From NCBI GenBank assembly GCA_963843375.1, contig CAWJKT010000015.1, positions 68,305-132,304 of the forward strand: a DNA stretch of 64,000 nt, in the 5' to 3' direction. Each line of letters opens with the position of its first letter. Position 1 is the stretch's first letter. The DNA comes from an uncultured Pseudomonadota bacterium (GTDB lineage Bacteria > Oederibacteriota > Muellerivitia > Muellerivitales > Muellerivitaceae). A model generated the notes under the pieces. That model was not told the DNA's origin. It did no database searches and worked only from the letters and a program-made list of their open reading frames with translations. Both the position numbers and the translations under genes were made by a program. Of this stretch, positions 2,543-32,396 are shown one piece after another.

Positions 2543-4846
2543 ATGGACCTTCAGCAGCTCCTTTATTCCATGGTTGAAAAAAAGGCCTCCGATGTGCATA
2601 TGAAGGCCGGTGCTCCTCCTCTTTTTCGTATTGATGGTGACTTGGCCCCCCAAAGCGAGAATCCCTTGACCCCCCAGGAACTAGCTGAAGTGGCTTCCTA
2701 TCTCATGGATGAAAAACAACAAAGAACCTTTTTCGAAGAACATAAAGAAGTGGATTTGGCCTATGCCGTGGAAGGTTTGGCTCGATTCAGGACCAATGCC
2801 ATGTGGCAAAGGGGATTGCCTGAGATAATTATGCGCGTTATTCCACAGCGCATTCCGAAAATTGAAGATATTAATATGCCGACAGCGATTCTGAAACAAA
2901 TTGCCATGGAGCAACGGGGCCTAATTCTGGTGACCGGAATCACGGGATCGGGCAAATCCACTACTTTAGCATCCCTTATCAATGAAATGAACGTCAACCG
3001 GGCGGCTCATATCGTCACGGTTGAAGATCCCATCGAGTTCGTCCATCCTGACAAAAAATCAAGCGTCACCCAGCGGGAAGTTGGTCTTGATACCGAGAGC
3101 TTCAAAACGGCCCTTAAATATGTTTTGCGGCAAGACCCAGATATCATTCTGATTGGGGAAATGCGCGATATTGAAACGGTTCAGGCCGCCATATCAGCCG
3201 CCGAAACGGGCCACTTGGTTTTATCGACCCTGCATACGATGGATACGATTCAAACGATCGAGCGTATTTTAGATTTTTTCCCTCCGGAACAACAAAATCA
3301 AATTCGGGTCCAGCTTGCTGGAACCCTCCGGGCTGTTATTTCCCAACGATTAGTCAACAAGGCCGATGGTGTTGGGGTGGTGCCGGCTTGCGAAATCATG
3401 ATTGTGACCCAGACCATAAAATCCTTGATCGCCGAGGGCAAAATTTCATCCATCCGGCAATTTATCGCGGAAGGCCATAGTCAATATGGCATGCAAACTT
3501 TCGATCAATCCTTGATTCAATTAGTTCGCGGGGGGTTCATCACGAAAGAAAACGCCATGGAGCAGGCGTCTTCTCCCAGTGAAATAGATTTGGGATTAAA
3601 AGGCATCTCTTCTTCGAAAGCCTCGGCTCAGTCTCTCATTTCTCAAATGGAGAATGCCCAACAAAAAGACCGCGTCAATGGCTGGCTTAAAAAGGGGCAG
3701 GAATACTATGAAAAACGTCGTTACGATGAAGCAAGGGGTGAACTCAAACGAGTCCTTCAGGAAATTCCGGAGCATAAGGAAGCCAATGCCCTGATGGCTC
3801 GGTTGCGGGAGATGGATAATAAGAGCGAAAAGAAAAAGGACGCGTCCACCAACATCAAAACGGCTTTACAGCTTTACCGGGAGGGGAAGCATCAGGCGGC
3901 GATTTTGGAGTTTCAAAAAGCGCTGGAACTCGACCCGGAAAACAAACAAGCTCAGGGTTATATTAAGGCCATCCAGGAAGAACTGGATAACCGATCCAAG
4001 GCCCGTGAATTCTATCAGGCGGCTTTAAACGCCCAAAATCAAAATGATTTGGCGGGCGCTTTGTCCTATGTGGATCAAGCCCTGGTTCTTGATCCGGAAA
4101 ACGAACAAGTCCAAGTTTTACAGCGGGACCTAAAAATATCCGTTCAAAAAGAACAGGCTCGATCCAAGGCTGATTCATTCAATCAAACAGCGATCGATTT
4201 ATACAAGTCGGGGGATTTGTTGAGCGCGTTGGTCGCTTGGAATAAAGCTTATGAGCTCAATTCCGAATTGGAAGATGTCGCCCGCTATCTTCAACAGGGA
4301 ATCACCAAGCTTTTGTCATTTGGGGTGGATGGGTTGGATGCTAATCCAGAGAAACAGCTTATTTTAAACCTCTTCGAACAGGGAGTCCGCAGTTATGTCC
4401 GTGGCGATTTTCAAACAGCTATGGACTTTTTCAAAAAAGCCATTTCCAAGGCCGATGGAAATAATTATTTAAACGCCTATCTTCAAAAGTCCGGCCAAAT
4501 GTTGGAACAACAGATCGGCGAGTTCCTTCAAGACGGGATTCGTGCCCAACAATCCGGAGATTTGACTACCGCCCAAAAGGAATTCACGAAAGTCATTCGG
4601 CTTTCCCCCGGACACCCTGAAGCCATTAAACAATTAGGGGCATTGAAGGTGACTATCCAGCAGAACATGGAAAAACTTTACGCCGATGGCAAACAATATT
4701 TTGATGCCAATGACATGGACCGGGCCATTCGGATTTGGACCCAGATTTTAGACCTGGAGCCTTCAAATGAACGGGCTCAGAAGCGCATTGAAGAGGCGAA
4801 GATCAAAAAAAATACCTTAAGCGGAATATTTTCAAAAATCAGTTGA
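2543..4846 (+). CDS. pilT: PilT-family type IV pilus retraction ATPase fused to a ~400-aa C-terminal TPR domain
   Basis: N-terminal ~350 aa carry Walker A GITGSGKSTT, Walker B DPDIILIGEMRD, His box TGHLVLSTLHT and a PilT-like TIKSLIAEGK. The remaining ~400 aa are TPR-like repeats (e.g. EFQKALELDPENKQAQ, ALVLDPENEQVQ, ILDLEPSNERAQ). Single uninterrupted ORF. Confidence 0.85.
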   Translation: MDLQQLLYSMVEKKASDVHMKAGAPPLFRIDGDLAPQSENPLTPQELAEVASYLMDEKQQRTFFEEHKEVDLAYAVEGLARFRTNAMWQRGLPEIIMRVIPQRIPKIEDINMPTAILKQIAMEQRGLILVTGITGSGKSTTLASLINEMNVNRAAHIVTVEDPIEFVHPDKKSSVTQREVGLDTESFKTALKYVLRQDPDIILIGEMRDIETVQAAISAAETGHLVLSTLHTMDTIQTIERILDFFPPEQQNQIRVQLAGTLRAVISQRLVNKADGVGVVPACEIMIVTQTIKSLIAEGKISSIRQFIAEGHSQYGMQTFDQSLIQLVRGGFITKENAMEQASSPSEIDLGLKGISSSKASAQSLISQMENAQQKDRVNGWLKKGQEYYEKRRYDEARGELKRVLQEIPEHKEANALMARLREMDNKSEKKKDASTNIKTALQLYREGKHQAAILEFQKALELDPENKQAQGYIKAIQEELDNRSKAREFYQAALNAQNQNDLAGALSYVDQALVLDPENEQVQVLQRDLKISVQKEQARSKADSFNQTAIDLYKSGDLLSALVAWNKAYELNSELEDVARYLQQGITKLLSFGVDGLDANPEKQLILNLFEQGVRSYVRGDFQTAMDFFKKAISKADGNNYLNAYLQKSGQMLEQQIGEFLQDGIRAQQSGDLTTAQKEFTKVIRLSPGHPEAIKQLGALKVTIQQNMEKLYADGKQYFDANDMDRAIRIWTQILDLEPSNERAQKRIEEAKIKKNTLSGIFSKIS

Positions 4847-4892: not shown

Positions 4893-5300
4893 ATGAAATT
4901 AATGATAGTGGGTGCTGGAGTTTTAATTCTGATTTTTATCGTTGTGCTGAACACGTCAATGGTCGCGGACCAAGCGTTATCTTGGGTTGCGGCCAATCCA
5001 AAGGATCCTGGAGCCCCTGATGTTCTTTATCGCACGGCGCGGTGGTGCGATATGCTTGGTAGCGACGACAAGGCAGCATCCATATATTTACAATTGTACC
5101 AACAATATCCCGAGCGGGGGGACTTGTGTGCGCCCGCCCTTTATCATTTGGCGTACAATCTGGCGAATGGAACATATATTGTTGGAATCAAAAAACAAGC
5201 CCTCCCTTATTTAGAAACGATCATGAACCAGTATTCGAGTCAAGACGAATGGTCGACTAAGGCAAAACAACTTTATGATGAGGTGAATTATGCCCATTAA
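4893..5300 (+). CDS. Small N-terminally membrane-anchored protein with TPR/YbgF-like helical repeat (hypothetical)
   Basis: ATG 4893 is preceded by AAAGGGG. One N-terminal hydrophobic helix (MKLMIVGAGVLILIFIVVL). The 3' end overlaps the next gene. Confidence 0.45.
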   Translation: MKLMIVGAGVLILIFIVVLNTSMVADQALSWVAANPKDPGAPDVLYRTARWCDMLGSDDKAASIYLQLYQQYPERGDLCAPALYHLAYNLANGTYIVGIKKQALPYLETIMNQYSSQDEWSTKAKQLYDEVNYAH

Positions 5301-6339
5301 GCTTGGCCGGACTGCGGAATGTTTGATTTTAATGTCGGCTATTTTTGCATTAGGAATTGGGTGCCGTTTGTGGGCGGCAACGGTAGAGGTGGAAAATGAG
5401 GATGATGATATTTCCGTGATTCCCACGCCTGCGCCAAAGGCAATGAATCCCCAAGTGACTCCATCGAACGATAAAGGGGTTGATGCGGATATTGAATTAC
5501 AGGGCGAAGAAAAAGAAGTTTTGCCATCGCCAACACCCGTAAAAAAACCAGAGGTGGATACACCAACTCCGAGCGTTGTTGCAAATGAAAGCCAAGTGAA
5601 AAAAAATGAACAGTCGAATTCTATCGAATCGACCTTACCTCGGGTTCGGATCAATGATAATGTTGGTTTTTATTATTTTGTTTCCGCCGGTTTCATGATT
5701 TCAGATAACGCCCAAATGCACTCCATAGGTAAAGTGATCGGGAACGCCGATACCAGCCTTAATTTCAGCATGCCCAAGAGAACTTATATTGAGTTGGCAT
5801 CAGATCATTATGAAGTTAGGCCTGATGACTTATTAGTTGTTTTTCATTCGGTGCCGGCGTTTCATGATTCGCATTCCACATTTCCTGCATACCAAATCGA
5901 AAATCTAGCCATTGTCAAAGTCATCGAAATTCAGAAAAGACGTGTGCTGGTTGAAGTAAAGGAATCTTTCCGGACTTTTCAGGACGGGGACTTAGTGGAG
6001 ACTTATGAAAATGAGATTAAAAGATGGAAACAGGCTCAAATTAAAAAAGTCCTTCCTTCGCACCCCGTTAAATGTTTTGTAATGGGGGGGGAGTTAAGCC
6101 GCCAAAATTACGAACAAACAGATTTTATTTTTCTTTCCGCTGGCTCAAAAGCTGGTGTTGTGGAAGGCCAAAAATTTGAACTACGGGAAATTGACAACAC
6201 TGGTGCTATGGAAGAGCCTCTTCATGCGCTGCGAGGCGTCGCCCAAGTTATTTCTGCAGGACTAAGGTGCTCCACGGCACAAATCATTAGCAATAGTGAA
6301 TCCATTAAAAAAGGTTTTGAAGCCGTTTACCAACCTTAG
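5290..6339 (+). CDS. Hypothetical exported/membrane protein with an acidic, Pro-rich linker
   Basis: 349-aa ORF with an N-terminal hydrophobic segment and an E/D/P/T-rich low-complexity region, followed by a globular C-terminal half. I recognise no family. Confidence 0.4.
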   Translation: MPIKLGRTAECLILMSAIFALGIGCRLWAATVEVENEDDDISVIPTPAPKAMNPQVTPSNDKGVDADIELQGEEKEVLPSPTPVKKPEVDTPTPSVVANESQVKKNEQSNSIESTLPRVRINDNVGFYYFVSAGFMISDNAQMHSIGKVIGNADTSLNFSMPKRTYIELASDHYEVRPDDLLVVFHSVPAFHDSHSTFPAYQIENLAIVKVIEIQKRRVLVEVKESFRTFQDGDLVETYENEIKRWKQAQIKKVLPSHPVKCFVMGGELSRQNYEQTDFIFLSAGSKAGVVEGQKFELREIDNTGAMEEPLHALRGVAQVISAGLRCSTAQIISNSESIKKGFEAVYQP

Positions 6340-6369: not shown

Positions 6370-7227
6370 ATGACTGTGATGATAGAGGAAGATCAGAGTT
6401 TTAAAAAAATATTGGCTTTTCTTTTGCGCTCAAAAGGTTTCGACGGTAATCACTATAAAACTAATTACATCAAACGTCGAATCGCGGTTCGAATGAGGGT
6501 GGTCGGAGCTTCAACCTATACCGACTATTTAAAAATCCTCCAACATAACCTTGAAGAACCAGCCAGACTTCTGGACCGCCTGACAATCCACGTAACAGAA
6601 TTTTTTCGTGATCCGAGTGTTTATAAAGCGGTCCAAGAAAAAGTACTTCCCGGTTTTTTGGGAAAAGCAGGAAAAAAAATGAAAGTATGGTGCGCTGGCT
6701 GCAGTACCGGTGAGGAGCCCTATTCACTTGCGGGGCTGTTGAACGAATGGGTTTCTTCGAATCCGGAGTACTCTTTTCAAATATTTGCTACGGACATTGA
6801 CCTAAAAAGCATCAGCTTCGCTGAAAAAGGGGAGTATTCACGTGAGTCCTTGGTAAAGGTGCCCAAAGGGGGGCTGACCCGTTGGTTTCGTTCCGATGGA
6901 ACAAAGGTCTCAGTTTCATTTGAATTGAAGAATCATGTTCGATTCAGGGTACATGATTTGCTTGGGAAATGGATGGCAAGTTTGTCCGATTTCGACCTCA
7001 TCTTTTGCCGGAATCTTTTAATCTACCTTACTGGAAAACAACAACAAAAAATTTATGAACAGTTTTCAAACGCCCTAAATCCCCAAGGGTATCTTGTGCT
7101 AGGGCTTACGGAAACCCTTCTGGGGCCCGCTCGGAAATATTTCCATTGCGTGGATGTTAAACATCGTATTTATCAAACCCTGGATTCAAGCGGTGAATTG
7201 GATTTGGAAAAGGATGCGAATGGATAA
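6370..7227 (+). CDS. cheR: Chemotaxis protein methyltransferase CheR
   Basis: N-terminal CheR helical domain plus SAM-binding VWCAGCSTGEEPYSLA and ..DLIFCRNLLIYL. Confidence 0.88.
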   Translation: MTVMIEEDQSFKKILAFLLRSKGFDGNHYKTNYIKRRIAVRMRVVGASTYTDYLKILQHNLEEPARLLDRLTIHVTEFFRDPSVYKAVQEKVLPGFLGKAGKKMKVWCAGCSTGEEPYSLAGLLNEWVSSNPEYSFQIFATDIDLKSISFAEKGEYSRESLVKVPKGGLTRWFRSDGTKVSVSFELKNHVRFRVHDLLGKWMASLSDFDLIFCRNLLIYLTGKQQQKIYEQFSNALNPQGYLVLGLTETLLGPARKYFHCVDVKHRIYQTLDSSGELDLEKDANG

Positions 7228-8392
7228 GGCACAAGAACACATCAATTTGGGGACGGCTTTTTCCCTTTCGCGTCGATTCGATGACGCCATCATTGAGTTC
7301 AAAAGAGCGTTGGAACTGAGTCCTTCTGACGCTGAGATACTTTTTCAATTGGGGGGACTCAGCACGAATGTTGGAAATTATGGGGAGGCGGAAAATTATT
7401 ACCGCCGCTCGCTTGAAATAAATCAAATGAATCTAAACGCACATTGCAAGCTGGGACTCCTTTTGGAAGTTCAGGGGAAATATCAGGAAGCTATTTTGGC
7501 GTTTCAGAAATCGGTTGAATTAAATCCTCTTGATGTCGGCCTTTACAATAACCTCGGAAATGTCTATTCCAAAATGGGGAAATACCAGGAGGCGATTGGA
7601 CAATACCAGAAATATATTGTTATCAATAAAAGTAACGCTGAGATTTACTTCAAATTGGGATATGCCTATGAACAAGCCGGTCAGTTGGAGGAGGCGATTT
7701 CTTCTTACGAACGGGCTTTGATTACGAATCCGCGGCACGCCGCGGTTTACGCTATTTTGGGAAACGTTTATTTAAAAACCGGGAAATACAATGAGGCGAT
7801 CGTTCAATACCATCAGGCCGTGAAATTTAACCCTAACGAACCGGAAGTTCATCTTAAACTCGGCCAAGCCTATATGTCACTTGGTCAATACGAAAAGGCG
7901 TTGGAGATTTTGAATCAGGCAAAAATAAAAAATCCCAACAACGCTGAAGTCTATTTGAAATTAGGAATGATTTACGCAAGTCGGGGTCAACATGATGAGG
8001 CCATTCAAATGTATAGAAAAGTTATGGAAATCAACCCTAATGATGCAAGCGTTCACAATGTTTTGGGGTATATTTATGACAAGCAGGGCGACCTTCAGCG
8101 GGCTCGGGATGAGTATAAAGCCGCCAAGTTAATTAATCCAAACGATGTTCAGATTTTGGACAATTTAGGAAATTTGAGTTACAAACAGGGGAATTTTGAC
8201 GAAGCGGTTGTCGAGTTTGAAAAACTGATAACTTTGAATCCTTCTCACCTGGACGCTCAGGCCAAACTGGGAAACATTTACATGAAAAAGGGCGAAAAAG
8301 AAAAAGCCATAGCTCATTGGGAGAAAGCATTGATACTCGATCCTTCGAATGATATTTTAAAAAATAATTTGAAAATTGTGCGAGGGAACTAA
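7220..8392 (+). CDS. TPR-repeat protein (overlaps the cheR stop; possibly the C-terminal half of a FrzF-like CheR-TPR)
   Basis: About 11 tandem 34-aa TPR units (consensus ..G.Y.EAI..Y.KAL.INPN.A....LG..Y). ATG 7220 has AGGA 5 nt upstream. The track ORF starts at 7154. Confidence 0.75.
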   Translation: MDKAQEHINLGTAFSLSRRFDDAIIEFKRALELSPSDAEILFQLGGLSTNVGNYGEAENYYRRSLEINQMNLNAHCKLGLLLEVQGKYQEAILAFQKSVELNPLDVGLYNNLGNVYSKMGKYQEAIGQYQKYIVINKSNAEIYFKLGYAYEQAGQLEEAISSYERALITNPRHAAVYAILGNVYLKTGKYNEAIVQYHQAVKFNPNEPEVHLKLGQAYMSLGQYEKALEILNQAKIKNPNNAEVYLKLGMIYASRGQHDEAIQMYRKVMEINPNDASVHNVLGYIYDKQGDLQRARDEYKAAKLINPNDVQILDNLGNLSYKQGNFDEAVVEFEKLITLNPSHLDAQAKLGNIYMKKGEKEKAIAHWEKALILDPSNDILKNNLKIVRGN

Positions 8393-8395
8393 TTT

Positions 8396-9034
8396 ATGAT
8401 GAAACCGCAAGAAAAATCATTGGGTGAGCTTCTTCGCCAAGCGGGAAAAATCACTTTTCGTCAAATTCAAGTGGCGTTAGGCGAACAAAAAAAAACCCAT
8501 GAACCGATTGGGAAAATTCTGATAAAGCTGGGTTTTGTCGAGGAACAAGACATATTGCAAGTCATGCAAGGGATGATGGTTTTGACCTTTCGTGTGGAAA
8601 AAGAATGGTATGGAATTGAAACATTTCGGGTTCGTGAAGTTTTAAAATACTCACCATTTCAATTGTTGGAAAATCCGAATGGGTCCTGGGTGGGAACACT
8701 TTCTTTGCGAGGGAAAACTATTTCTGTTTTATCTTTTCGAACTTTTCTGGAAATGGGACAAGTTCAAAGTCCTGAGGGAACTTGGTTTATTGTTTTGGAA
8801 AAGAAAGGGAATCCATTTGTATTGTGGGTTGATCAGGTGAAAGAAGTCACGAGGTTTAAAATAGAACAAATTGAACCCTTGCCGCCTTATTTATTGGGTA
8901 AAAAAAACGACTTATATTATTGTTTGGGTAAAATAAAAGACGATCTTTATTCAATCTTAAATCCAGACAAATTAATCGACGATAACGGCGTTTTACTGCC
9001 ATCGTCAGGGGTTGGTTATGCCTACCCGACCTGA
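8396..9034 (+). CDS. Hybrid protein: T2SSE_N/MshEN-like N-terminal domain fused to a CheW domain
   Basis: Residues ~8-57 (SLGELLRQAGKITFRQIQVALGEQ...PIGKILIKLGFVEEQDILQVMQ) match the tandem GspE/MshE N-domain motif. Residues ~60-200 are CheW-like (..YGIETFRVREVL...LSLRGKTISVLSFR...LWVDQVKEV). Confidence 0.7.
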   Translation: MMKPQEKSLGELLRQAGKITFRQIQVALGEQKKTHEPIGKILIKLGFVEEQDILQVMQGMMVLTFRVEKEWYGIETFRVREVLKYSPFQLLENPNGSWVGTLSLRGKTISVLSFRTFLEMGQVQSPEGTWFIVLEKKGNPFVLWVDQVKEVTRFKIEQIEPLPPYLLGKKNDLYYCLGKIKDDLYSILNPDKLIDDNGVLLPSSGVGYAYPT

Positions 9035-11231
9035 AACTAAAACTATCCGTGAACTTGCCCATGGAAGCGATCAAGGGGACGCTTCTACTCACAATAATTT
9101 GGGCGTATTTTATTATTCCAAAGGGATGTATGCCGAGGCCATAAAAGAATTTAAAACGGCTTTGGAAGTGGATCCGGAAAACAATCAAGCGCAAGAAAAC
9201 TTGAAGGCCGTGAACCGTCATACAGGGCTTTATGATAGGTCGATCGAGGCTTACAAAAAATCAGTCCAAATGTTTCCCCAGGATGCCGAGGCTTATTACA
9301 ATCTGGCCAATGCATATCGTTATACCGGTCAATATGAAAAGGCCATCGAGGAGTATCGAAAGTCGCTCCAATTAAATCCGGACCATCCTTTTGCCAGGAA
9401 TTATTTGGGGATTGCTAACAAATGCTTAGGCAGGTTTGATGAAGCACTGGCCGAATTTCGAAAGGCCATTGAAAAAAATCCTTTTTTTGCCGACCTTCAT
9501 AATAATTTGGGCGAGGTTTATTATAAAAAAACTATGATCAACGAGGCATTGATCGAGTTTAAAAAAGCTATTTCCCTAAATCCTGATTATGCCATTGCCC
9601 ATTACAATTTAAGTTTTGTTTATGGCGACAAAAATATGCTTCAAGAAGCGGAACGAGAATTCAAAAAAGCCGTAGATTTGAATCCGAATTTTGGTCAAGG
9701 ATCACAGGCACTTTTGGCTATTGAACGCCCTAAAACCTTGGAAGAAAGGGTAGCGGAGAAAGTCGCAGCAAATCCCGCCGAACACAATGGAGTCGATACT
9801 TATTTGAGCTTAGCTTCCGCATATAAAGGAAAGGGGTTATTGGACGAGGCTATTCGGGAATATAAACGGGCCATCGAGGCCGTTCCTGGACAAGAAAAAC
9901 TTTATCGCGCCTTAGGAGAAATATATCTTGTTAAAGGGATGTTGGAGGACTCCTTAGCGGCTTCCCAAAAAGCCATCGAATTGGCTCCCAAGAATGTTGA
10001 AAACTATATTCAAACAGGGATTGCTTTAAGAGAACTTAATCGAACGGACCAAGCCGCAAAACAGTTTCTAACGGCCATACAAATATCACCTGGATCTAGT
10101 ATGGGCCATTTTGAACTGGGAGTGACCTACTTTAAAATGGGTGAAAGTGAAAAGGCGACCCAACAGGTGCGGGAAGCATTGGAAATCGATCCTCAAAATG
10201 CCGAAGCCCATTATTATCTTGGAGTTTATTACTACAAAGTGAATTTATATGACGAAGCCATTCGTGAAATTTCACAAGCCATTGATTTAAATGTTTCTAT
10301 CGCATCCAGCGCTGAAGCGTTGACCTATCTGGGATTGGCTTTATCCGATAAGGGACGGTTTGAGGAAGCGATCGCGGAATATAAAAAAGCGATGGAGTTT
10401 GACCCCAAAAATCCGATAATTCACAATAGCTTAGGAGTTGCTTACAAGAATGCAGGTATGATTCAAGAATCCATTGCACATTACCAAAAGGCCATTGAAC
10501 TTAACCCCCAATACGCAAAAGCCTACAATAATTTAGGCGTTGTTTACTTTAAAATGAGCCAATACGAGAGGGCCATTGAAGCATTCAAAAAAGCGGTTGA
10601 AATTGAACCGCTTTATAAAACAGCGCAAAATAATTTGGCCGTTGCCCTGAAAAAGAAGAATGTCCTGTCGGAAGCATCGGAAGTTCTTATTAAACAAATT
10701 ATGGCGGATCCCGAAAACGCTTCTCTCCATTTCAATTTAGGAATTCTTTATAAGAATACTGGGCAGTTTTTGGAGGCCGTTAGGGAATTTCAAGAAACGG
10801 TTCGATTAGTTCCGAAGAATCGTGAGGCTCTTACAAATTTAGGTGAAGTTTATTTGAACTTGGAAATGTTGGATGATGCCATAAAGGTTTTGGCACGCGC
10901 AGTGTCCTGTGATGTTCAATTTCCGGAAGCTCATTTACAACTGGGCAAGGTCTACATTCGGCGCAAATGGTGGGACGAGGCGCTAGTTGAACTTAGAAAA
11001 GCAGAGGAGCTTAAACCGGAATTGAATGAGGTTCATTTTTATTTGGGGCAGGTGTATAGGTTTAAAAGTTGGTGGGATGAAGCGGTTGTCGAGTTTCAGA
11101 AATATATGGACTCCCATAGCCCTGAAGAAGATAAGGTGATTCAATCGATTGACATGCTTCAACAGATACAAGTTTGGAAAAGAGAACTACAGATTTCTCC
11201 CAGCGCCGATAAATCGAAATTGATTAAATAG
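9018..11231 (+). CDS. Large TPR-repeat protein (~737 aa, about 20 repeats)
   Basis: Continuous TPR units throughout (NLGVFYYSKGMYAEAIKEFKTALEVDPEN... onward). ATG 9018 overlaps the upstream gene by 17 nt. Confidence 0.8.
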   Translation: MPTRPETKTIRELAHGSDQGDASTHNNLGVFYYSKGMYAEAIKEFKTALEVDPENNQAQENLKAVNRHTGLYDRSIEAYKKSVQMFPQDAEAYYNLANAYRYTGQYEKAIEEYRKSLQLNPDHPFARNYLGIANKCLGRFDEALAEFRKAIEKNPFFADLHNNLGEVYYKKTMINEALIEFKKAISLNPDYAIAHYNLSFVYGDKNMLQEAEREFKKAVDLNPNFGQGSQALLAIERPKTLEERVAEKVAANPAEHNGVDTYLSLASAYKGKGLLDEAIREYKRAIEAVPGQEKLYRALGEIYLVKGMLEDSLAASQKAIELAPKNVENYIQTGIALRELNRTDQAAKQFLTAIQISPGSSMGHFELGVTYFKMGESEKATQQVREALEIDPQNAEAHYYLGVYYYKVNLYDEAIREISQAIDLNVSIASSAEALTYLGLALSDKGRFEEAIAEYKKAMEFDPKNPIIHNSLGVAYKNAGMIQESIAHYQKAIELNPQYAKAYNNLGVVYFKMSQYERAIEAFKKAVEIEPLYKTAQNNLAVALKKKNVLSEASEVLIKQIMADPENASLHFNLGILYKNTGQFLEAVREFQETVRLVPKNREALTNLGEVYLNLEMLDDAIKVLARAVSCDVQFPEAHLQLGKVYIRRKWWDEALVELRKAEELKPELNEVHFYLGQVYRFKSWWDEAVVEFQKYMDSHSPEEDKVIQSIDMLQQIQVWKRELQISPSADKSKLIK

Positions 11232-11242
11232 TAAGGATATTC

Positions 11243-11581
11243 ATGAAATTGCTTGTTTGTATTATTTCGCCCAAAAAAATTGAACAAGTTAAAAAGACTT
11301 TATGGGAAGCTGGAGTTCGAGGAGTAACCTTGTCGGAGGGGTATGGTTTTGGATATCAAAGGGTTCAGGTAGAAGCGATAAAAGGGGCGGATTATAAAGT
11401 CCAATACCAGCCGAGAATACGTGTTGAAATTGCATTGCCTAATAATGAAGTTGAAAAAGTGCTTGAACTGCTTTTGGAAACAGTCCGGACGGGTCGAATT
11501 GGAGATGGAAAATTCTTTATCTTACCTCTTGAGGATGCGATTCGTGTTCGCACGGGTGAACGGGGCGAAGGTACTCTTTAA
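11243..11581 (+). CDS. P-II family signal-transduction protein (GlnB/GlnK-like)
   Basis: 112 aa, collinear with canonical GlnB: MKL..IISP.K...VK..L.EAGV.G.T..E..GFG.Q...........Y.V...P..R.EI....EVE.V...L....RTG.IGDGK.F..P...A.RVRTGE. Confidence 0.8.
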   Translation: MKLLVCIISPKKIEQVKKTLWEAGVRGVTLSEGYGFGYQRVQVEAIKGADYKVQYQPRIRVEIALPNNEVEKVLELLLETVRTGRIGDGKFFILPLEDAIRVRTGERGEGTL

Positions 11582-11699
11582 TAGGTTTTTATTGATTGGC
11601 ATAAAGCTTAAAATTTAAAAAGGTTTTCATTTTTCAACAAAACAATTAACATCAGTTTGGATCGGAACTACAAATTTATTCGTTTTTAGGGAGGGTGAA

Positions 11700-12062
11700 G
11701 TGGCACATCGAGTTATGCTCGTTGATGATGCGTCTTTCATGAGAATGATGCTGAAAAACATTCTTGTGGGATCCGGATATGAAATTATTGGTGAGGCTGA
11801 AAACGGGGCCAAAGCGGTTGAACAATATAAGAGCCTGAAACCGGATTTAACAATCATGGATATTATCATGCCTGAAATGGGTGGTATTGATGCGGTACGG
11901 GAAATTGTAAAAATAAATCCTTCCGCAAAAATTCTAATGTGTAGCTCCATGGGTCAACAATCATTAGTGGTGGAAGCAATTCAAGCTGGGGCCAAAGATT
12001 TTATTGTCAAACCTTTTCAACCATCCAACGTATTGGAGGCTGTTAAAAAGGCATTGGGTTAA
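11700..12062 (+). CDS. cheY: Chemotaxis response regulator CheY
   Basis: 120-aa receiver: VMLVDDASFMR, phospho-acceptor context DLTIMDIIMPEMGG, KPF. GTG start preceded by GGGAGGG. Confidence 0.9.
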   Translation: MAHRVMLVDDASFMRMMLKNILVGSGYEIIGEAENGAKAVEQYKSLKPDLTIMDIIMPEMGGIDAVREIVKINPSAKILMCSSMGQQSLVVEAIQAGAKDFIVKPFQPSNVLEAVKKALG

Positions 12063-12110
12063 ACCTAAAGCACTTTAAAGTCTATTCGGTTAAACAAAGT
12101 GGGTGGCGCG

Positions 12111-12750
12111 ATGGGAATAGAATCTGAAATTTTCAGTGATTTTCAATTGGATGCTTTGCGGGAAATCGGAAATGTTGGAGCCGGAAACGCCGCCACTGCT
12201 CTTTCTCAAATGGTCGGGCGCCGAGTCGATATGTCGGTAACAAAGGTTTTGGTTTTGCCAACCGATGGCATTGCGGGTTTTTTAGGCGGGTTGGATCAAA
12301 ATGTGGCTGCGGTTCATATGCCCATCTATGGAGAAGTTTGCGGTATTTCCCTTGTGTTCTTTCCACTGGATAGAATCAATGAGCTTTGTGGGATGTTGAT
12401 CGGAAAAGTAGAAAAAGATCCATTCCATTTGTCCGAATTGGGCCAATCCGCCATTAAGGAACTTGGAAGCATACTAACGGGTTCCTATTTAAGCGCTTTG
12501 TTCAGGTTTGTCCATATTCAAATGATCCATGGTGTTCCTGGGCTTGGCGTTAGATATGGCGCAAGCCGTGCTTGATACGGTTTTGGTGGAATTAGAGCAA
12601 AAAGAAGAAATCGCCATCGTGATTGAAACAGAATTTCTTGAAAATGAAAAACAATTAACAGGTAGTTTTTTCCTTTTGCCGGAAGCCGGGTCTTTGAAAA
12701 AATTGTTTATTGCTTTTTCAAAATCACTTGGAATTCCTGGGAATGCCTGA
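12111..12750 (+). pseudogene. cheC: CheC-like CheY-P phosphatase, split by a single +1 frame disruption near 12540-12547 as given
   Basis: ORFs 12099..12575 and 12529..12750 together are collinear with the intact CheC at 17422..18036 (..HGVPGL | ALDMAQAVLDT..). Both active-site motifs are partly degenerate (first ends in T rather than P; second has S for N). Confidence 0.75.
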
Positions 12751-13192
12751 AGAAAACTGGATTGTTGGCATCGCGGAATATAAGGTAACCCACAGCCCAA
12801 ACAGGCTAGTGGCTTATGGTCTGGGTTCTTGCGTGGGGGCTATACTTTGCGATCTCCAGGCTAAAGTTGGCGGGTTGGCTCATATCATGCTTCCCTCAAG
12901 CCGTCTTTATGTTCAGACGGAATTTCCTGGTAAGTTTGCCGATACTGCGATTGACATGTTAGTAAATGAGATGGAAAAATTGGGGAGCTGTCCAAAAAAT
13001 ATTTTCTCCAAAATTGTTGGTGGCGCAAATATGTTTTCTTCGATCTCGCAAAATTCAGTTCCGATTGGGTTGCGTAACGTTTCTGCTGTTCGTGAAAAGT
13101 TGCAGCAGCGAAACATCCCTATTTTGGCCGAACAAGTGGGGGGGACCCAGGGAAGAACAGTCTTATTTGATATTGAGACCGGAAAGAGTTGA
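12743..13192 (+). CDS. cheD: Chemoreceptor glutamine deamidase CheD
   Basis: ..GLGSCVGAILCD...GGLAHIMLPSS.. are the CheD catalytic Cys/His contexts. ATG 12743 overlaps the cheC stop (ATGCCTGA). Confidence 0.85.
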   Translation: MPEENWIVGIAEYKVTHSPNRLVAYGLGSCVGAILCDLQAKVGGLAHIMLPSSRLYVQTEFPGKFADTAIDMLVNEMEKLGSCPKNIFSKIVGGANMFSSISQNSVPIGLRNVSAVREKLQQRNIPILAEQVGGTQGRTVLFDIETGKS

Positions 13193-13242
13193 AATACGGA
13201 AATTAAATCAATTTTCGGAATGGATTTGATCGGAAGTGTGAA

Positions 13243-13708
13243 TTGAGTGTTTCGTTATCGGAAGTATCTAATAGTTTCCAGGTTAGCGATGAATTCCAAT
13301 GGGTTGTTTTCTGCATAGCTGGATCCGAGATGAGTGTTGGGATCAGTCATGTTCGGGAAATAATCCGTGTGGGCGAAATAACTCGAATGCCAAGGGCTCC
13401 CAAATTTTTGGAAGGAATCATCAATCTGCGAGGACGTATTATCCCCGTTTTAGACTTGAAAAGACGTTTTAATATGCCACTTGTGGATTCGACAAGTGAA
13501 TCACGGATATTAGTAGTTGAAATTGAAGACCAAATGTTAGGTCTTTTAGTGGATAAGATTTTAGAAGTCATAAAAGTTTCTGTCGCAAATGTCGCTCCGC
13601 CAAAAGAGACGACATTGAATATCGGCCCCGAGTATCATAAATGGAGTGCTGACTTTGGATCGTCGAAAAATTCTTATTTTTGAACTTGCTGAAGCTTTTT
13701 GTATTTGA
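13243..13708 (+). pseudogene. cheW: CheW coupling protein; 3' end displaced by a +1 disruption at a C-run near 13626-13629
   Basis: CheW domain (..FCIAGSEMSVGISHVREI...INLRGRIIPVLDLKRRF..LGLLVDKILEV). The conserved C-terminus (..SIINGVLTLDRRKILIFELAEAF) is only readable in the +1 frame, which ends at 13708. Confidence 0.75.
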
Positions 13709-13764
13709 GGATATGAAATTATTTTCGGATTCTGAGGCGGGTTCTTTTGGGGAGGGAAAAACCA

Positions 13765-14130
13765 TTGGCCATTAAAGTATTATTCGTGGATGATTCTTCT
13801 TTCATGAGAACTGTTCTGAAAGGGATTATTCTAAAAGACCCTTTTGAACTTGCAGGAGAGGCTGGAACCGGTAAAGATGCCGTGGATCTTTATAAGAAGT
13901 TAAAACCTGATCTCGTCACCATGGATATCGTGATGCCGGAAATGAACGGTATAGACGCCGTAAAAGAGATTCGACTCTTTGACTCGCAAGCGAAAATCAT
14001 TATGGTAAGTGCGATGGGGCAACAGAATATGGTGATTGATTCTATACAGGCAGGTGCCAGGGATTTCATAATTAAACCCTTTCAGCCACCGCGCGTCCAC
14101 GAAGCTTTGAAGCGGGTAATTGGTATTTAA
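13765..14130 (+). CDS. cheY: Chemotaxis response regulator CheY (second copy)
   Basis: Receiver domain: KVLFVDDSSFMR, DLVTMDIVMPEMNG, IIKPF. TTG 13765 sits 9 nt after GGAGGG (track start 13747). Confidence 0.85.
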   Translation: MAIKVLFVDDSSFMRTVLKGIILKDPFELAGEAGTGKDAVDLYKKLKPDLVTMDIVMPEMNGIDAVKEIRLFDSQAKIIMVSAMGQQNMVIDSIQAGARDFIIKPFQPPRVHEALKRVIGI

Positions 14131-14160
14131 GATGTATATATCAGGCCTTAGGAATTCTTT

Positions 14161-15273
14161 ATGATGCCTGAAAAATCCTCCACCATTAAAGTTTTGGTCG
14201 TCGATGACTCCTACTTCATGCGAAAAATGCTTCAGGATATCTTGGCGGATTCAAGCGATGTTATCCGTGTAGTGGACACCGCTAAAAACGGTTTGGAGGC
14301 AATTGAAAAGACTAAAAAATTAAAACCTGATGTTATTACCATGGATGTCGAAATGCCTCGGATGGATGGTTTGGTGGCTCTTGAAAAGATTATGCGGGAA
14401 CGACCGACCCCAGTGATCATGCTCTCGAGCCACACAGGAAAAGGTAGCGAAGCCACTATTCGGGCGCTGGAATTAGGAGCCGTTGATTTTATCGAAAAGC
14501 CGGTCGGCAGGATCTTGGAAAATGTTCGGGACATTCAAGGTGAATTGATTGAGAAAATTAAGATGGCGTCCCTAAGCAGGCCAAGATACTTTCCTCCATC
14601 GAGTCCAGAAGTTGAAACTAAAAGTTCAATAAAAAACCGTCCGCAGGTGAGCGGGGCTTCATCAAACGGTATCAAAAGTGAAAATCGGGCGACTTTTATT
14701 GTTGCAATCGCCTCGTCGACGGGCGGTCCCCGCGCACTGAACGAGCTTTTTTCTCGAATAACTGGAAATTCAACTTCGGCTTTCGTAATTGTGCAACATA
14801 TATCCGTTGGATTTACCAAGGCTTTAGCCCGAAGGTTAGGGGAAGTGAGCCCATTAGTATTTTCAGAAGCAATAGAAAATGGTTACTTGAAAGCAGGATG
14901 TGTTTATCTCGCGCCTGGGGGATGTCATCTCGTTTTAGAGGGGTTGCCCGGCAATTTTCGATTTGCCTTTGACGACTCTCCTCCCCGTTTAGGCGTCAAG
15001 CCCTCGGCGGATATTACAATGGCCTCCGTGGCAAAGGTTGCTCCAAAAAAATGTTTGGGAGTTGTTTTAACAGGAATGGGCCGGGATGGAACTATTGGTT
15101 TAAAAAGTATACGAGCTGTTGGTGGAAAAACGTTTGCTCAAGATGCAGAGAGTTGTGTTGTCTATGGCATGCCTAAATCTGCGATGGATGCCAAAGTGAT
15201 AGATCGACAATTGCCAATAGCCGCAATTGCGGCTGAAATCAATGCCTTTTTAAGCCACCAAATTGAACTCTAG
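14161..15273 (+). CDS. cheB: Protein-glutamate methylesterase/glutaminase CheB (receiver + methylesterase)
   Basis: N-terminal receiver (VLVVDDSYFMR, DVITMDVEMPRMDG). C-terminal catalytic contexts IASSTGGPRAL, VQHISVGF, TGMGRDG. Confidence 0.9.
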   Translation: MMPEKSSTIKVLVVDDSYFMRKMLQDILADSSDVIRVVDTAKNGLEAIEKTKKLKPDVITMDVEMPRMDGLVALEKIMRERPTPVIMLSSHTGKGSEATIRALELGAVDFIEKPVGRILENVRDIQGELIEKIKMASLSRPRYFPPSSPEVETKSSIKNRPQVSGASSNGIKSENRATFIVAIASSTGGPRALNELFSRITGNSTSAFVIVQHISVGFTKALARRLGEVSPLVFSEAIENGYLKAGCVYLAPGGCHLVLEGLPGNFRFAFDDSPPRLGVKPSADITMASVAKVAPKKCLGVVLTGMGRDGTIGLKSIRAVGGKTFAQDAESCVVYGMPKSAMDAKVIDRQLPIAAIAAEINAFLSHQIEL

Positions 15274-15345
15274 TGACGGAATGTCATAACCAATGGTTTA
15301 AAATACATAAGGTGATTTGGACTTTGTTATTGACGGGAGCTTTTA

Positions 15346-17441
15346 GTGAACATCGGAGATTATAAAGATGCTTTTTTGACGGAAGCCCGCGAGTACTTAT
15401 CGACACTTAATAATTCCTTGGTTTTGTTGGAAAAAAATCAAACTCAAACCGACGCCATTAATGATATTTTCCGAGCGGCTCATACACTTAAGGGGATGGC
15501 CGCGACGATGGGTTACGATCCAATGGTGCGGTTGACACACCAAATGGAAACACTTTTGGAACCGATTCGTTCCGGGACTCAAAATCCTTTCTACCCGAAT
15601 GGTAGATGTCCTGTTTGTTTGTTTGGATCAGTTGGAAAAATGGTTGGAAATTTTAATGACGCAAGATTTTATTGAGGAAGAAAGCCTTCAAACGGTTCTT
15701 CAATTGCTCTATTCGGTTTGGGATGACCAATCTAATTCAGATGTTTCCGGGATCGATTCTTTTACCCCCGAAATCGAAATTCCACTACTTTTCTCGGAAT
15801 CGGAAAATGAAATATTGTCCCAAGCTAAGATAAATGGCTTTTCTATCTTTAAAATTATCAATCCAATTAGTCCCGGATTGTAATTTCAAAGAAGTTCGAG
15901 CTTTCATGATCCTAAAAAACATAAATGTGTTTGGCGAAATTGTTCAAAAGCCGTCCTATTCCCGAAGAAATTGAAAAGGGACATTTTATGGACCGGTTTA
16001 TATTAGTTGTTGTGACTGATTGGAAACCTGAAAAAATCAAAGAATCGCTTTTGAATGTTGGAGAGGTTATCGATGTTAGAGTCGAGGACTTTGTGCCCAG
16101 AATCTTCTTCGGCTCCATTTACTGGGAATGAGGAAGTTTTGGGGCTGAATTCGAAAACGATTTCTCTTTCTCCGCCGAGTCAGTCGGTGGCCCCGGAAGA
16201 GCGGAAGATTATTTTACCTACCATCCGTGTCCATACCTCGAAATTAGATAAATTAATGGCATTGGTTCAGGAATTGGTAATTTCGAAAATTCGCTTTGAA
16301 CAAGTTGCTACCTCCAAAGCATTGAAAGAGTTGTCGGACCCGCTTTCACAACTAAATCACATTACCGACGAACTTCAGGACGAAATTATGAAGGTTCGTC
16401 TGATGCCCGTGAAACAAATTTTCGAAAGATTTCCGAGGATGATTCGGGACTTGGCCAAAAATTTGAATAAACAAGTTGATTTGGAAATGGATGGAGCGGA
16501 AGTTGAATTAGATAGGACAGTACTAGAGGAAATGAGCGAACCACTTGTTCATCTTTTAAGAAACGCGGTTGACCATGGGATAGAAGAACCCGAAATAAGG
16601 ACCAAAGAAGGGAAGGAACCCTATGGGACCATCCGGCTTCAGGCTAAACGCGAGAGATCTTATGTTGTTATTTCCATTTCGGATGACGGTCGGGGGGTTG
16701 ATCCGGATATTATTCGACAAAAATCTATTGAAAAAGGACTTGTGACCCCTGACGATGCGGCAAAACTAACAGATGAAGAGGTGATTCGTTTGATTGCCTT
16801 ACCTGGCTTTTCAACCGTTGAAAATGCTACTGAAATATCTGGCCGAGGTGTTGGGGTTGATGTGGCCAAAACAAAAGTTGAAATACTTAGGCGGAACTTT
16901 TCGGATTCTAAGCAAAAAAGGACATGGAACCACATTTATTTTGAAATTTCCGCTTACTTTGGCAATTATTAAGGCACTTTTAGTCAAGTGTAACCAGGAA
17001 ATATTTGCCATGCCTGTTGTCAATATCATTGAAACGCTCGATGTTTTTCCAGCGGAGAAAAAATTGATTCAACAACAAGAAACTATTATTTTGAGGGGAG
17101 ATGTTATACCCCTTTATCCACTTCAGGAACTACTGGATTTGCCCATTCCCGATGTTAGTTACATAACTGGACTGGAGACTGTTCTGGTGGTTGAGGTGGG
17201 GGAATCAAGAGTGGGATTGCGGGTGGATGAGGTAATTGCCCAACAAGAGATAGCCATTAAATCCCTAGATCGAATTTTAAAAGGCATACGTGGTTTTTCG
17301 GGCGCAACTATTCTGGGGAATGGTAAGATAGCGCTCATATTGGATGTGAATAGTTTGATCGAAGATTTAAAGGACAAGCGTTTTCAGGTTGAACATCCTC
17401 TTTTTAGTAAGGAAGACGTTAATGCTTCTCAATCTCGATGA
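15346..17441 (+). pseudogene. cheA: Chemotaxis histidine kinase CheA, spread over five reading frames (at least 5 single-nt +1 disruptions)
   Basis: HPt (AAHTLKGMAATMG) lies in ORF 15346..15675. The P2-like VRAFMILKNINVFGEIVQ and PIPEEIEKGHF lie in two further frames. P3/P4 (TIRVHTSKLDKL, HLLRNAVDHGIE, DDGRGV, GRGVGVDV) are in 16055..16972. The end of the ATPase domain and P5/CheW-like (GGTFRILSKKGHGTTF..PLTLAIIKALLV) are in 16794..17441. Confidence 0.88.
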
Positions 17442-18036
17442 ATTAAATCCAGCTCAACTGGATGCGATAAAAGAAGTTGGAAATATTGGAGCGGGGCACG
17501 GTGCGACAGCCCTTTCTCAGCTTTTAGGGAAAAGAATCTTAATCACTGTTCCTAAAGCAAACATCATTCCCTTATCAGAGATTCCGAGCTTAGTGGGGGA
17601 TCCAAATACCCTGGTAGCGGGGCTTACTTTGTCTATTTTGGGGGATGCAACAGGAAAAATTATTCTTTTGTTTCCAAGGGATTCAGCGCTTCATCTTGCG
17701 GACATGCTTTTAAAACAACCGATCGGTTCCAGCAAAATTCTAACCGAAATGGGACATTCGGCCATTAAGGAAGCTGGAAATATTCTAACCGGAGCTTACT
17801 TAAGTGCTTTAAATGAATTTTTGGGAATGTTACTCCTTATTTCAGTTCCAACTTTAGTTTTTGACATGGCGGGTGCCCTTTTGGCTACTGTCACTCAAGG
17901 GTTGGAAGATGCGACAAAAGTTATTTCGATTGAAACACGATTCATTGATGACAACAAAGAAATAGGCGGTTATTTTATTTTGGTTCCAGATGCGGTTTCG
18001 TTACGTGCTATTTTTCAAGCAATCAAGGTTAAGTGA
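17422..18036 (+). CDS. cheC: CheC-type CheY-P phosphatase (both D/S-x3-E-x2-N-x22-P motifs intact)
   Basis: DAIKEVGN + 22 aa + P, and SAIKEAGN + 22 aa + P. ATG 17422 overlaps the cheA end (track start 17389). Confidence 0.75.
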   Translation: MLLNLDELNPAQLDAIKEVGNIGAGHGATALSQLLGKRILITVPKANIIPLSEIPSLVGDPNTLVAGLTLSILGDATGKIILLFPRDSALHLADMLLKQPIGSSKILTEMGHSAIKEAGNILTGAYLSALNEFLGMLLLISVPTLVFDMAGALLATVTQGLEDATKVISIETRFIDDNKEIGGYFILVPDAVSLRAIFQAIKVK

Positions 18037-18184: not shown

Positions 18185-19261
18185 TTGAAAAACTCATTTC
18201 ACGTTGTGTCAAACCCGCCAATTCATCAATCAAATCTAGTTGCATGCTGTAAAGATATTCTGGAAAACTTCAAATTTGACTGTGTTTTTTTGGCTCGCGC
18301 TTCCAATGCCGAAGAACCCCTTTCGATAGTGGCATTAGATGGTAAGGAAGAAGTAATGGATACCTGCCTTTATCGGTTGGGGGTGGAGGAGCGAAATGCA
18401 CTTTCCAAACTTCCGCTAAAAACCTATTTGGATATAACTGGAAAACCTGTTTTCAATAAATCCGGGTCTCTTCGCATTCAAAAACCCAACAGCGGCGTGT
18501 TTATGGTATTGAACCGGGCAAAAAAAAATTATTTGTTATTTGGATGTGCTCATCAGAATTCGCAAGCTTATGATCATAAAACGCTGGAGGAGCTTTCCGC
18601 ACTTTGGAAGCTGTGGCAGGAACCGTTGGAAAGAGCCGTTCTGCAAGTGTCCGAAACGGGGAAAAAGGACGGGGGAATTGATAATTCAAAGAATGAAACT
18701 GTTGTTGAAGAAAAACCGGGTTTCACTTTAATTAATTCAGTTACAACGCCCCAATCCCCTGAACTTAATCGAGATGGACGTCGCCCGATAGTCCTGGTGG
18801 ATGAAGTGACTCGTCTTTTTAATAAAGAATATTTTGCCGAATGTCTTTCAATTGAGGTTGAAAGGGCGAAAAGATATTCCCGCTTGATGAGCCTTATGTT
18901 TCTAAGCGTTTCACCTGTTGATGGCGTTTCAAGCAAACTGGATAAAAATCTAGTGGCGACACAAGTCGCTGAAATTCTTTCCAAGAGTCTTCGCCGGGTA
19001 GATGTAATCTGTCGGTTAGATCAAAATAAATACGGAATAATTCTTCCGGACACGGCGAATAACACGTATGGAATTATTGCGAAAAGAATTTTTAAATTCT
19101 TCAAGCTAATTATGGGAGACGCGTCTCCTGTGTTTCTTAATATCAGTGCTTCTACTTATCCAAAGCATGCCGCGGACCATCATAGTCTTCTTGAGAATGC
19201 TGAAAAACTTTTGGCTCAAGCGCAAGAGGTTGGGCCGAACAAAGCTGTTCTACCGGAATGA
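18185..19261 (+). CDS. Two-domain signalling protein: N-terminal GAF-like region plus a degenerate GGDEF domain
   Basis: The C-terminal ~165 aa align to the GGDEF fold (DEVTRLFNKEYF...RYSRLMSLMFLSV...R.VDVICRLDQNKYGIILPDT). The GG(D/E)EF signature is replaced by DQNKY. Confidence 0.55.
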   Translation: MKNSFHVVSNPPIHQSNLVACCKDILENFKFDCVFLARASNAEEPLSIVALDGKEEVMDTCLYRLGVEERNALSKLPLKTYLDITGKPVFNKSGSLRIQKPNSGVFMVLNRAKKNYLLFGCAHQNSQAYDHKTLEELSALWKLWQEPLERAVLQVSETGKKDGGIDNSKNETVVEEKPGFTLINSVTTPQSPELNRDGRRPIVLVDEVTRLFNKEYFAECLSIEVERAKRYSRLMSLMFLSVSPVDGVSSKLDKNLVATQVAEILSKSLRRVDVICRLDQNKYGIILPDTANNTYGIIAKRIFKFFKLIMGDASPVFLNISASTYPKHAADHHSLLENAEKLLAQAQEVGPNKAVLPE

Positions 19262-32015: not shown

Positions 32016-32396
32016 ATGACATCATTTCTCCCTTCGGATAAGCGTTTTTCTAAACGGATCTCGGTAAGGATTTTCTTGCGCTTTCGCCTTTTGGAATCAC
32101 CTTCTGGGGAAAAGCCTGAGTTGGAACTCCACAATGGAAACAATATTATGTCGAATATCAGCAGGACGGGCTTCTTTCTTTCAACAAAAAATTATTTAGA
32201 AGTTAATTCCCTGATTGAAGTTGAGTTTCCCTTGGAAAACTTTCATGCGGTTATTCGATCTGAAGCGAAAGTTGTAAGAGCCAATCACGCTAATTTTCCA
32301 AACCAGGGCAGGTATGAATATGGCCTTCATTTCGAGGCTATGCATCCTCACTTCAGGGAACTTTTGGAAAAACTATCAAAATTAACCGAAGGTTGA
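32016..32396 (+). CDS. PilZ-domain (c-di-GMP binding) protein
   Basis: KRFSKRISVR (RxxxR-type) and NISRTG ([D/N]xSxxG) motifs in a 126-aa protein. Confidence 0.7.
   Translation: MTSFLPSDKRFSKRISVRIFLRFRLLESPSGEKPELELHNGNNIMSNISRTGFFLSTKNYLEVNSLIEVEFPLENFHAVIRSEAKVVRANHANFPNQGRYEYGLHFEAMHPHFRELLEKLSKLTEG

Follow-up and report, generated by a model that had tools for sequence, protein, structure and literature searches.

Can a chemotaxis coupling protein itself be a receptor for cyclic di-GMP (c-di-GMP)? This second messenger controls whether cells move or settle and chemotaxis controls where they move, and the known links between the two either run through PilZ proteins that are separate molecules or take effect at the motor. 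The question is raised by an ORF of 212 aa (8396..9034, + strand) in the window, the whole stretch of 64,000 nucleotides that was analysed, for which the original prediction proposed a CheW domain preceded by a domain of the kind found in the ATPase MshE.

The two domains of the fusion protein

The CheW domain of the protein was borne out. Residues 62-196 (8579..8983, + strand) matched PF01584 of Pfam with 86.2 bits (E=2e-24; cut-off 23.5), and Foldseek matched CheW structures with E=1e-12 to 1e-9, at target-normalised TM values of 0.78-0.87 for the top seven CheW matches.

Residues 5-59 (8408..8572, + strand) form a predicted four-helix bundle of the MshEN_N type, as indicated by NF053729, the AlphaFold2 (AF2) model, Foldseek and pN/pS. 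NF053729, an NCBIfam model of 53 positions for a cyclic di-GMP-binding domain ('c-di-GMP_motif, MshE-related'; cut-off 38 bits), matched residues 9-57 with 54.8 bits (E=5.7e-15), and the isolated N-domain (residues 1-62) scored 58.6 bits. A phmmer search against the PDB sequences retrieved PilF (6f8l, E=1.8e-13) and MshE (5htl, E=2.5e-5). The AF2 model of the fusion, built on 20 family members, had a mean pLDDT of 84.6. The N-domain helices are predicted at residues 9-15, 21-34, 38-44 and 50-58 with pLDDT above 90; helix 1 begins at L9 with no N-terminal extension, and the CheW strand E60-67 directly follows helix 50-58 without a linker. Foldseek superposed the modelled N-domain on c-di-GMP-bound MshE (5htl_B) over 50 columns with an rmsd of 0.9 Å and 40% identity, and on PilF GSPII-B (8pdk_A) over 50 columns with an rmsd of 1.0 Å.

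The original prediction had named the lack of a PF05157 match as grounds for giving up the N-terminal domain, and taken literally this is what we found: PF05157 gave zero matches even at E<=10, for the whole protein as for residues 1-62 alone. This miss is technical and does not validly refute the identity of the N-domain, because PF05157 models a longer two-subdomain unit. The fusion is not a full MshEN of the PF05157 kind, as it has no C-terminal T2SSE_N1 subdomain and its CheW strand comes directly after helix 4 in the AF2 model. We set the miss aside because the 53-residue model, the PDB sequences and the predicted fold all match. By the NF053729 score, the PF01584 score and the fold matches, the predicted MshE-type domain at the N-terminus of a CheW stands, and the presence of an MshEN_N-type and a CheW domain in one protein is confirmed as real.

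Full-text literature searches found no MshEN-CheW fusion, and it is not mentioned in a survey of CheW-like architectures. The latter is expected because Pfam is blind to the N-domain, so that such surveys class the fusion as a plain CheW. Among the best 150 of 1433 N-domain matches in a library of 1.8 billion proteins, CheW occurred only in the fusion family and in three close outliers (P0220, P0232 and P0242), the other members being multi-repeat MshEN_N proteins. A region-restricted homologue search returned the fusion family alone and no further architectures. Separately, the N-domains of divergent-clade members gave weak, below-cut-off Pfam matches to DUF4388 (PATAN) with E=7e-5 to 3e-3 (L028:4776-4964, L032:10001-10195 and L023:10001-10189), which hints at a possible sequence relation between the PATAN and MshEN_N motifs.

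The fusion ORF opens with ATG-ATG, 3 nt past the stop codon of an upstream TPR gene, and the next TPR gene overlaps its 3' end. About 100 homologues are 54-100% identical to it, nearly all of them about 212 aa long, and in the alignment all share its start. The conserved region opens with an invariant QEKSLGELL, with the same start in 34/34 family sequences (window included); the in-frame sequence upstream of QEKSLGELL is not conserved in the 33 related loci. Nei-Gojobori counts over 210 pairs gave a pS of 0.82, a pN of 0.089 and a pN/pS of 0.11 for the N-domain (residues 5-59), as compared to 0.75, 0.277 and 0.37 for the CheW part. Synonymous sites in the fusion are saturated (pS about 0.8), and constraint on the N-domain is about threefold that on the CheW part. 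The shared start, together with a pN/pS of 0.11 at saturated synonymous sites, indicates that the N-domain is translated and under strong purifying selection, which disposes of the earlier caveat that the true start might lie downstream of it. An artefact, that is, a chance motif match or a downstream start leaving the N-region untranslated, would fit the missing PF05157 match, but it has virtually no chance of being correct and is, on this evidence, already refuted by the NF053729 match (E=5.7e-15), the low pN/pS of the N-domain and the start and QEKSLGELL common to 34/34 family sequences.

The fusion gene in its che operon

The fusion belongs to a four-gene core, cheR-TPR (about 376 aa)-fusion-TPR (about 740 aa), whose order is kept in nearly all related loci, which come mostly from candidate division FCPU426. 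The first core gene, cheR (6370..7227, + strand), encodes CheR and CheR_N domains and is syntenic in 33/33 related loci. The TPR-repeat protein upstream of the fusion (7154..8392, + strand) is about 376-390 aa long, its true start probably lying near 7217-7223; its orthologues are collinear, with 35-88% identity over about 375 aa, and lie directly 5' of the fusion in 32/33 loci. The downstream TPR-repeat protein of 739 aa (9012..11231, + strand), whose gene overlaps the 3' end of the fusion gene, has collinear orthologues with 41-93% identity over about 740 aa in 29/33 loci. In many cases this 739-aa protein exceeds the fusion's CheW domain in conservation.

After the core there normally follow genes for P-II, cheY, cheC, cheD, cheW, cheY and cheB; most clades also have cheA and cheX there. 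In the window, the rest of the operon (11243..18036, + strand; assigned by Pfam and synteny) comprises P-II, cheY, cheC, cheD, cheW, cheY, cheB, a frame-broken cheA and cheC/X. The fusion gene shares this operon with cheA and with cheR, Y, C, D, W, B and X, and the arrangement is syntenic in 33 loci. The P-II gene, of the GlnB/K type (11243-11581), is located within the che operon, and its synteny extends to nearly all related loci, with 41-85% identity. The cheA gene is split over at least three frames (Hpt at 15346-15675, dimerisation and HATPase at 16055-16972, P5 at 16794-17441). In the same-genus relative L021, cheA is one intact ORF of 698 aa. Splits also occur in FliG and several GGDEF genes elsewhere in the window's genome, and cheC and cheW carry frameshifts in this assembly too; errors of assembly at homopolymers are the likely, though unproven, origin of the split. 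In the L022/L023/L025/L026/L033 clade, no cheA was found within 4 kb after cheB, and the ORFs at L023:16791-20587 (762 aa, 268 aa and 177 aa) matched no Pfam family.

The last operon gene (18185..19261, + strand) encodes a degenerate GGDEF protein (GGDEF, 53 bits) with DQNKY at the A-site and an intact I-site, RRVD. This gene ends the operon in the window's clade. Among 13 orthologues, the I-site R[RK]VD, five residues upstream of the A-site, is invariant, and the A-site is degenerate. By these motifs the protein is a candidate c-di-GMP receptor. Instead of this gene, the divergent L028/L031/L032 clade has, directly upstream of cheR, a gene for an HD-GYP protein with N-terminal membrane segments and intact HD, HHE and GYP motifs (L028:1376-2773; L032:6496-7920; L031 about 6582-7970). 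The same clade has an MCP of 421-437 aa between cheD and cheW, whereas the che operon of the window's clade has no MCP.

A gene upstream of the core (2543-4846) encodes a PilT-like ATPase fused to about 400 aa of TPR repeats; in the window's clade its identity is 70-92%, and the operons of other clades lack it. Between this gene and cheR lies a gene for a 349-aa protein (5290-6339) with an N-terminal hydrophobic segment, a Pro/Thr-rich region and no Pfam family; it is syntenic at this place in the window's clade, with 27-59% identity.

The window's genome contains three MshEN_N matches, namely a PilB-like ATPase (71.8 bits), the fusion and a GspE-like ATPase, along with about 18 GGDEF loci, 15 PilZ domains and 2 HD-GYP proteins. 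One of the 15 PilZ-domain matches lies at 32136-32375, about 13 kb downstream of the che operon. The genome also encodes 4 MCPs, a second che cluster, FliG and a PilB-PilT pair.

The taxonomic survey called for by the original prediction revealed that the domain pair is phylum-wide: a single full-length copy of the fusion is present in 65/99 genomes of the phylum, including 47/60 high-quality genomes, and in 41/62 genera. When scored against FliG (FliG_C matches), the genomes fell into 52 with both, 13 with the fusion only, 23 with FliG only and 11 with neither (odds ratio about 1.9), and there was no clear association. Six of the 13 fusion-carrying genomes without a FliG_C match are 96-100% complete. 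We do not claim a flagellar output for the operon, because of this lack of a clear association and the 13 fusion genomes without FliG; its output may differ between lineages.

Motif residues and the published binding rules

The N-domain contains two tandem motifs of 24 residues, 5 residues apart. Motif I (residues 8-31, SLGELLRQAGKITFRQIQVALGEQ; 8417..8488, + strand) aligns with R9-Q32 of MshE, and motif II (residues 37-60, PIGKILIKLGFVEEQDILQVMQGM; 8504..8575, + strand) aligns with R38-Q61. They are separated by the spacer KKTHE (8489..8503, + strand), which is 5 residues long in 32/34 family members. A run of nine A nucleotides (8487-8495) extends into the spacer, and the reading frame through it matches that of all homologues. 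Two copies of one sequence pattern had been predicted here. The first is a literal fit (LGELLRQAGKITFRQIQVALGEQ), but the second reads IG..L...G.V......VM..M, its terminal Gln being replaced by M60. In the phmmer alignment with MshE, S8 falls on R9, Q31 on Q32, P37 on R38 and M60 on Q61; the replacement of the leading Arg of the two motifs by Ser and Pro was thus correctly foreseen.

We counted motif conservation over 34 family members, window included. Position 1 of motif I is S in 33/34 and T in 1/34, outside both the R/K/L set and the relaxed set of Wang 2016 (R, K, P, N), and Ser at motif position 1 is rare elsewhere (13/648 motif instances in other MshEN_N proteins). P37 of motif II lies within the relaxed position-1 set, as in the binder PilF GSPII-C. 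Motif I is invariant at G3, E4, L5, L6, Q16, A20, L21 and Q24 (the last being Q31 of the protein), with L in 33/34 and I in 1/34 at position 2; motif II is invariant at P1, G3, K4 and G23. Motif II never has Q at position 24, where 34/34 members carry M, L or I, so that Gln ends only one of the two motifs. The hydrophobic-Gly turns are kept (L9-G10 and I38-G39, with the G invariant in both motifs), as are the hydrophobic triads (I24/L28/I38 and L9/I53/M57) and the helix-turn glycines (G17 in 31/34 members, G46 in 32/34). Across the whole protein, conservation is highest in the motifs, at the L/G positions, the triads, the helix-turn Gly and Q31, and the length of the spacer is kept as well. 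R14 and K18 place charges at core positions in the window's clade, unlike in the divergent clades. S8-x-x-E11 looks like a helix capping box, which could pre-form or occlude the amide site.

An MshEN_N domain binds one c-di-GMP; the contacts come from backbone amides in the LG turns, from two Leu triads and from the Gln ending each motif (PMC5013675). The guanine is bound by the LG-turn backbone amides, and the position-1 residue stacks on it (PMC5013675). The isolated N-subdomain binds c-di-GMP alone (PMC11731258, PMC5013675). The original prediction had considered binding doubtful for want of the leading Arg, and this argument did not hold in that form. Position-1 Arg is dispensable, as PilF GSPII-B, with K and L there, binds c-di-GMP at 6 nM (PMC11731258), and PilF GSPII-C, whose motif II starts with Pro, does so at about 0.3-0.5 uM (PMC11731258) or 324 nM (PMC12002112). 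The doubt itself persists, by way of the Ser of motif I and the non-Gln end of motif II. The Q218E mutation of PilF carries a 77-fold affinity cost (PMC11731258). In the non-binder PilF GSPII-A, binding was regained only after repair of S39 and of both non-Gln position-24 residues, and putting Ser back at motif II position 1 (S39) of the engineered domain abolished it (PMC12002112). I19R is among the changes listed for another non-binder, XpsE (PMC5013675).

The NF053729 score was rejected as a proxy for binding: the non-binder GSPII-A scored 54.6 bits, GSPII-C 51.7, MshE 84.1 and the fusion N-domain 58.6. The score indicates the fold family and not binding. In favour of a live site, the LG/IG turns, the triads, the Gly positions, Q31 and the spacer length are kept in the fusion, whereas the known non-binders XpsE and GSPII-A have decayed at several LG, Gly and Leu-triad positions (PMC5013675, PMC12002112). 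The predicted start of helix 1 at L9 and the different c-di-GMP genes in the operons of two clades point the same way. Overall, we judge that the N-domain may bind c-di-GMP at roughly even odds.

Possible roles of the N-domain

The fusion gene is best explained as coding for a coupling protein that is specialised and the second of its kind in a complete chemosensory operon. That it is a c-di-GMP-sensing one is a proposition we regard as evenly balanced. The N-domain would bind a cyclic dinucleotide, most likely c-di-GMP, via a variant site in which Ser and Pro stand where the two Arg would be and only the Gln of motif I is left. With no break between helix 4 and CheW strand 1, occupancy would be transmitted rigidly to the CheW domain and would change the contacts of this CheW with receptors, CheA-P5 or the co-encoded TPR proteins and CheR; a second-messenger input would then be placed directly on the array scaffold. 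This reading is supported by the domain identity, the retention of the ligand site, the strong constraint on the N-domain, the published binders without the position-1 Arg and the c-di-GMP-related genes of the operon and of the genome; it is weakened by the Ser of motif I, the non-Gln end of motif II, R14 and K18, and a model score that does not separate binders from non-binders.

The main rival is that a degenerate, ligand-free MshEN_N bundle acts as a fixed docking module, for instance for the two co-translated TPR proteins or CheR, which it would recruit to the array via CheW. The Ser of motif I and the non-Gln residues (M, L or I) that end motif II are changes that were harmful in PilF GSPII-A (PMC12002112), R14 and K18 sit at core positions, and the NF053729 score is equally compatible with a non-binder. 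The TPR genes flanking the fusion as collinear orthologues (32/33 and 29/33 loci), with overlapping or 3-nt junctions, and the 739-aa TPR protein being more conserved than the CheW domain would likewise suit a docking partner. We nevertheless consider a fixed docking module unlikely, though worth serious attention, as the LG, Gly and Leu-triad positions that decayed in XpsE and GSPII-A are the most conserved ones here, and a c-di-GMP-related gene occurs independently in the operon of two clades. Docking and c-di-GMP sensing could also combine, as ligand-dependent docking.

The original prediction had further proposed that the locus physically links a Che array to type IV pilus components, with the N-domain contacting the pilus machinery or the PilT-TPR ATPase. 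Within the window's clade, the PilT-like ATPase with TPRs (2543-4846) is indeed syntenic, at 70-92% identity, and the 13 fusion-carrying genomes without FliG, six of them 96-100% complete, suggest an output that is not strictly flagellar. However, three genes lie between the PilT-TPR gene and the fusion, the operons of the more divergent clades (L022-L033) do without it, and the genome has FliG as well as a separate PilB-PilT pair, with a PilB-like ATPase that carries its own canonical MshEN (71.8 bits). The operon moreover contains cheC, cheD and cheX, whose products are typical of flagellar-class systems in the classification of Wuichet and Zhulin, as summarised in 10.1101/2022.05.07.491037. 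Judged by gene set and by a PilT-TPR linkage confined to one clade, it does not look like a system of the Tfp class, which combines conserved pilus linkage with the lack of CheC, CheD and CheX. The proposed link could not be upheld as stated, and we give a tie between the Che array and pilus function only a slim chance.

The chance is slimmer still that the bundle binds another nucleotide (cGAMP, c-di-AMP or other), with the Ser/Pro/Met site reflecting a changed specificity. MshEN binds cGAMP weakly (PMC5013675), and S8, P37 and M/L60, along with the invariant Q5-E6-K7, Q16 and K4 of motif II, are fixed phylum-wide; on the other hand, the guanine-specific backbone-amide geometry of the LG/IG turns is kept, and the operon-linked enzymes are of the c-di-GMP type (GGDEF I-site, HD-GYP).

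Set against known systems, the fusion represents a new architecture and a variant, in sequence, of a module already known; as a system it is not of a new kind. It shares with MshE of Vibrio cholerae (5HTL) and PilF GSPII-B/-C of Thermus thermophilus (8PDK) the two 24-residue motifs, the 5-residue spacer and the four-helix bundle, keeping the LG turns, the Leu-type triads, the helix-turn Gly and the Gln of motif I, and with GSPII-C the Pro at motif II position 1. Unlike MshE and PilF, it lacks MshEN_C/T2SSE_N1 and the ATPase, its helix 4 entering CheW instead, and has Ser for R/K/L at motif I position 1, M/L/I for Gln at motif II position 24 and, in the window's clade, R14 and K18 at core positions. 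Closest in design are the fusions of Supplementary Table 4 of Wang et al. 2016, (MshEN_N)2-CheX of Geobacter lovleyi (Glov_2742) and a CheA of Aeromonas veronii with an internal MshEN_N (PMC5013675). In these, as here, a stand-alone 53-residue module on a chemotaxis protein implies a putative c-di-GMP input to the Che pathway, but the chemotaxis fusions of that table are of CheA and CheX only, with no stand-alone CheW (PMC5013675), whereas the present partner is a stand-alone CheW and the module is single, N-terminal and linker-less.

The downstream operon has the gene set of Thermotoga/Bacillus-type che operons (CheA, W, Y, B, R, C, D and X). It differs from them by two large TPR proteins, P-II, a second CheW bearing MshEN_N and a degenerate GGDEF or HD-GYP protein and, in the window's clade, by the lack of an MCP.

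Among the PilZ routes from c-di-GMP to chemotaxis are MapZ-CheR1, YcgR and PilZ-bearing receptors. PlzC of V. cholerae provides another (PMC12799141). In these routes, as in the candidate role of the fusion, a second messenger modulates chemosensory output, but there the PilZ domain is separate or attached to a receptor, while here the candidate receptor is part of the array scaffold.

Should the N-domain bind c-di-GMP, the site rules of MshEN_N would widen to include a leading Ser in motif I and a site with just one Gln. More broadly, and with somewhat less than even confidence, we suggest that the array scaffold may itself be a second-messenger receptor: an Arg-free Ser/Pro MshEN_N site, acting with the TPR scaffolds, CheR, P-II and the c-di-GMP receptor or phosphodiesterase of the operon, would constitute an unrecognised input layer that gates receptor-kinase coupling phylum-wide. 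If so, a CheW with its own c-di-GMP-type module would place the messenger at the receptor-kinase interface.
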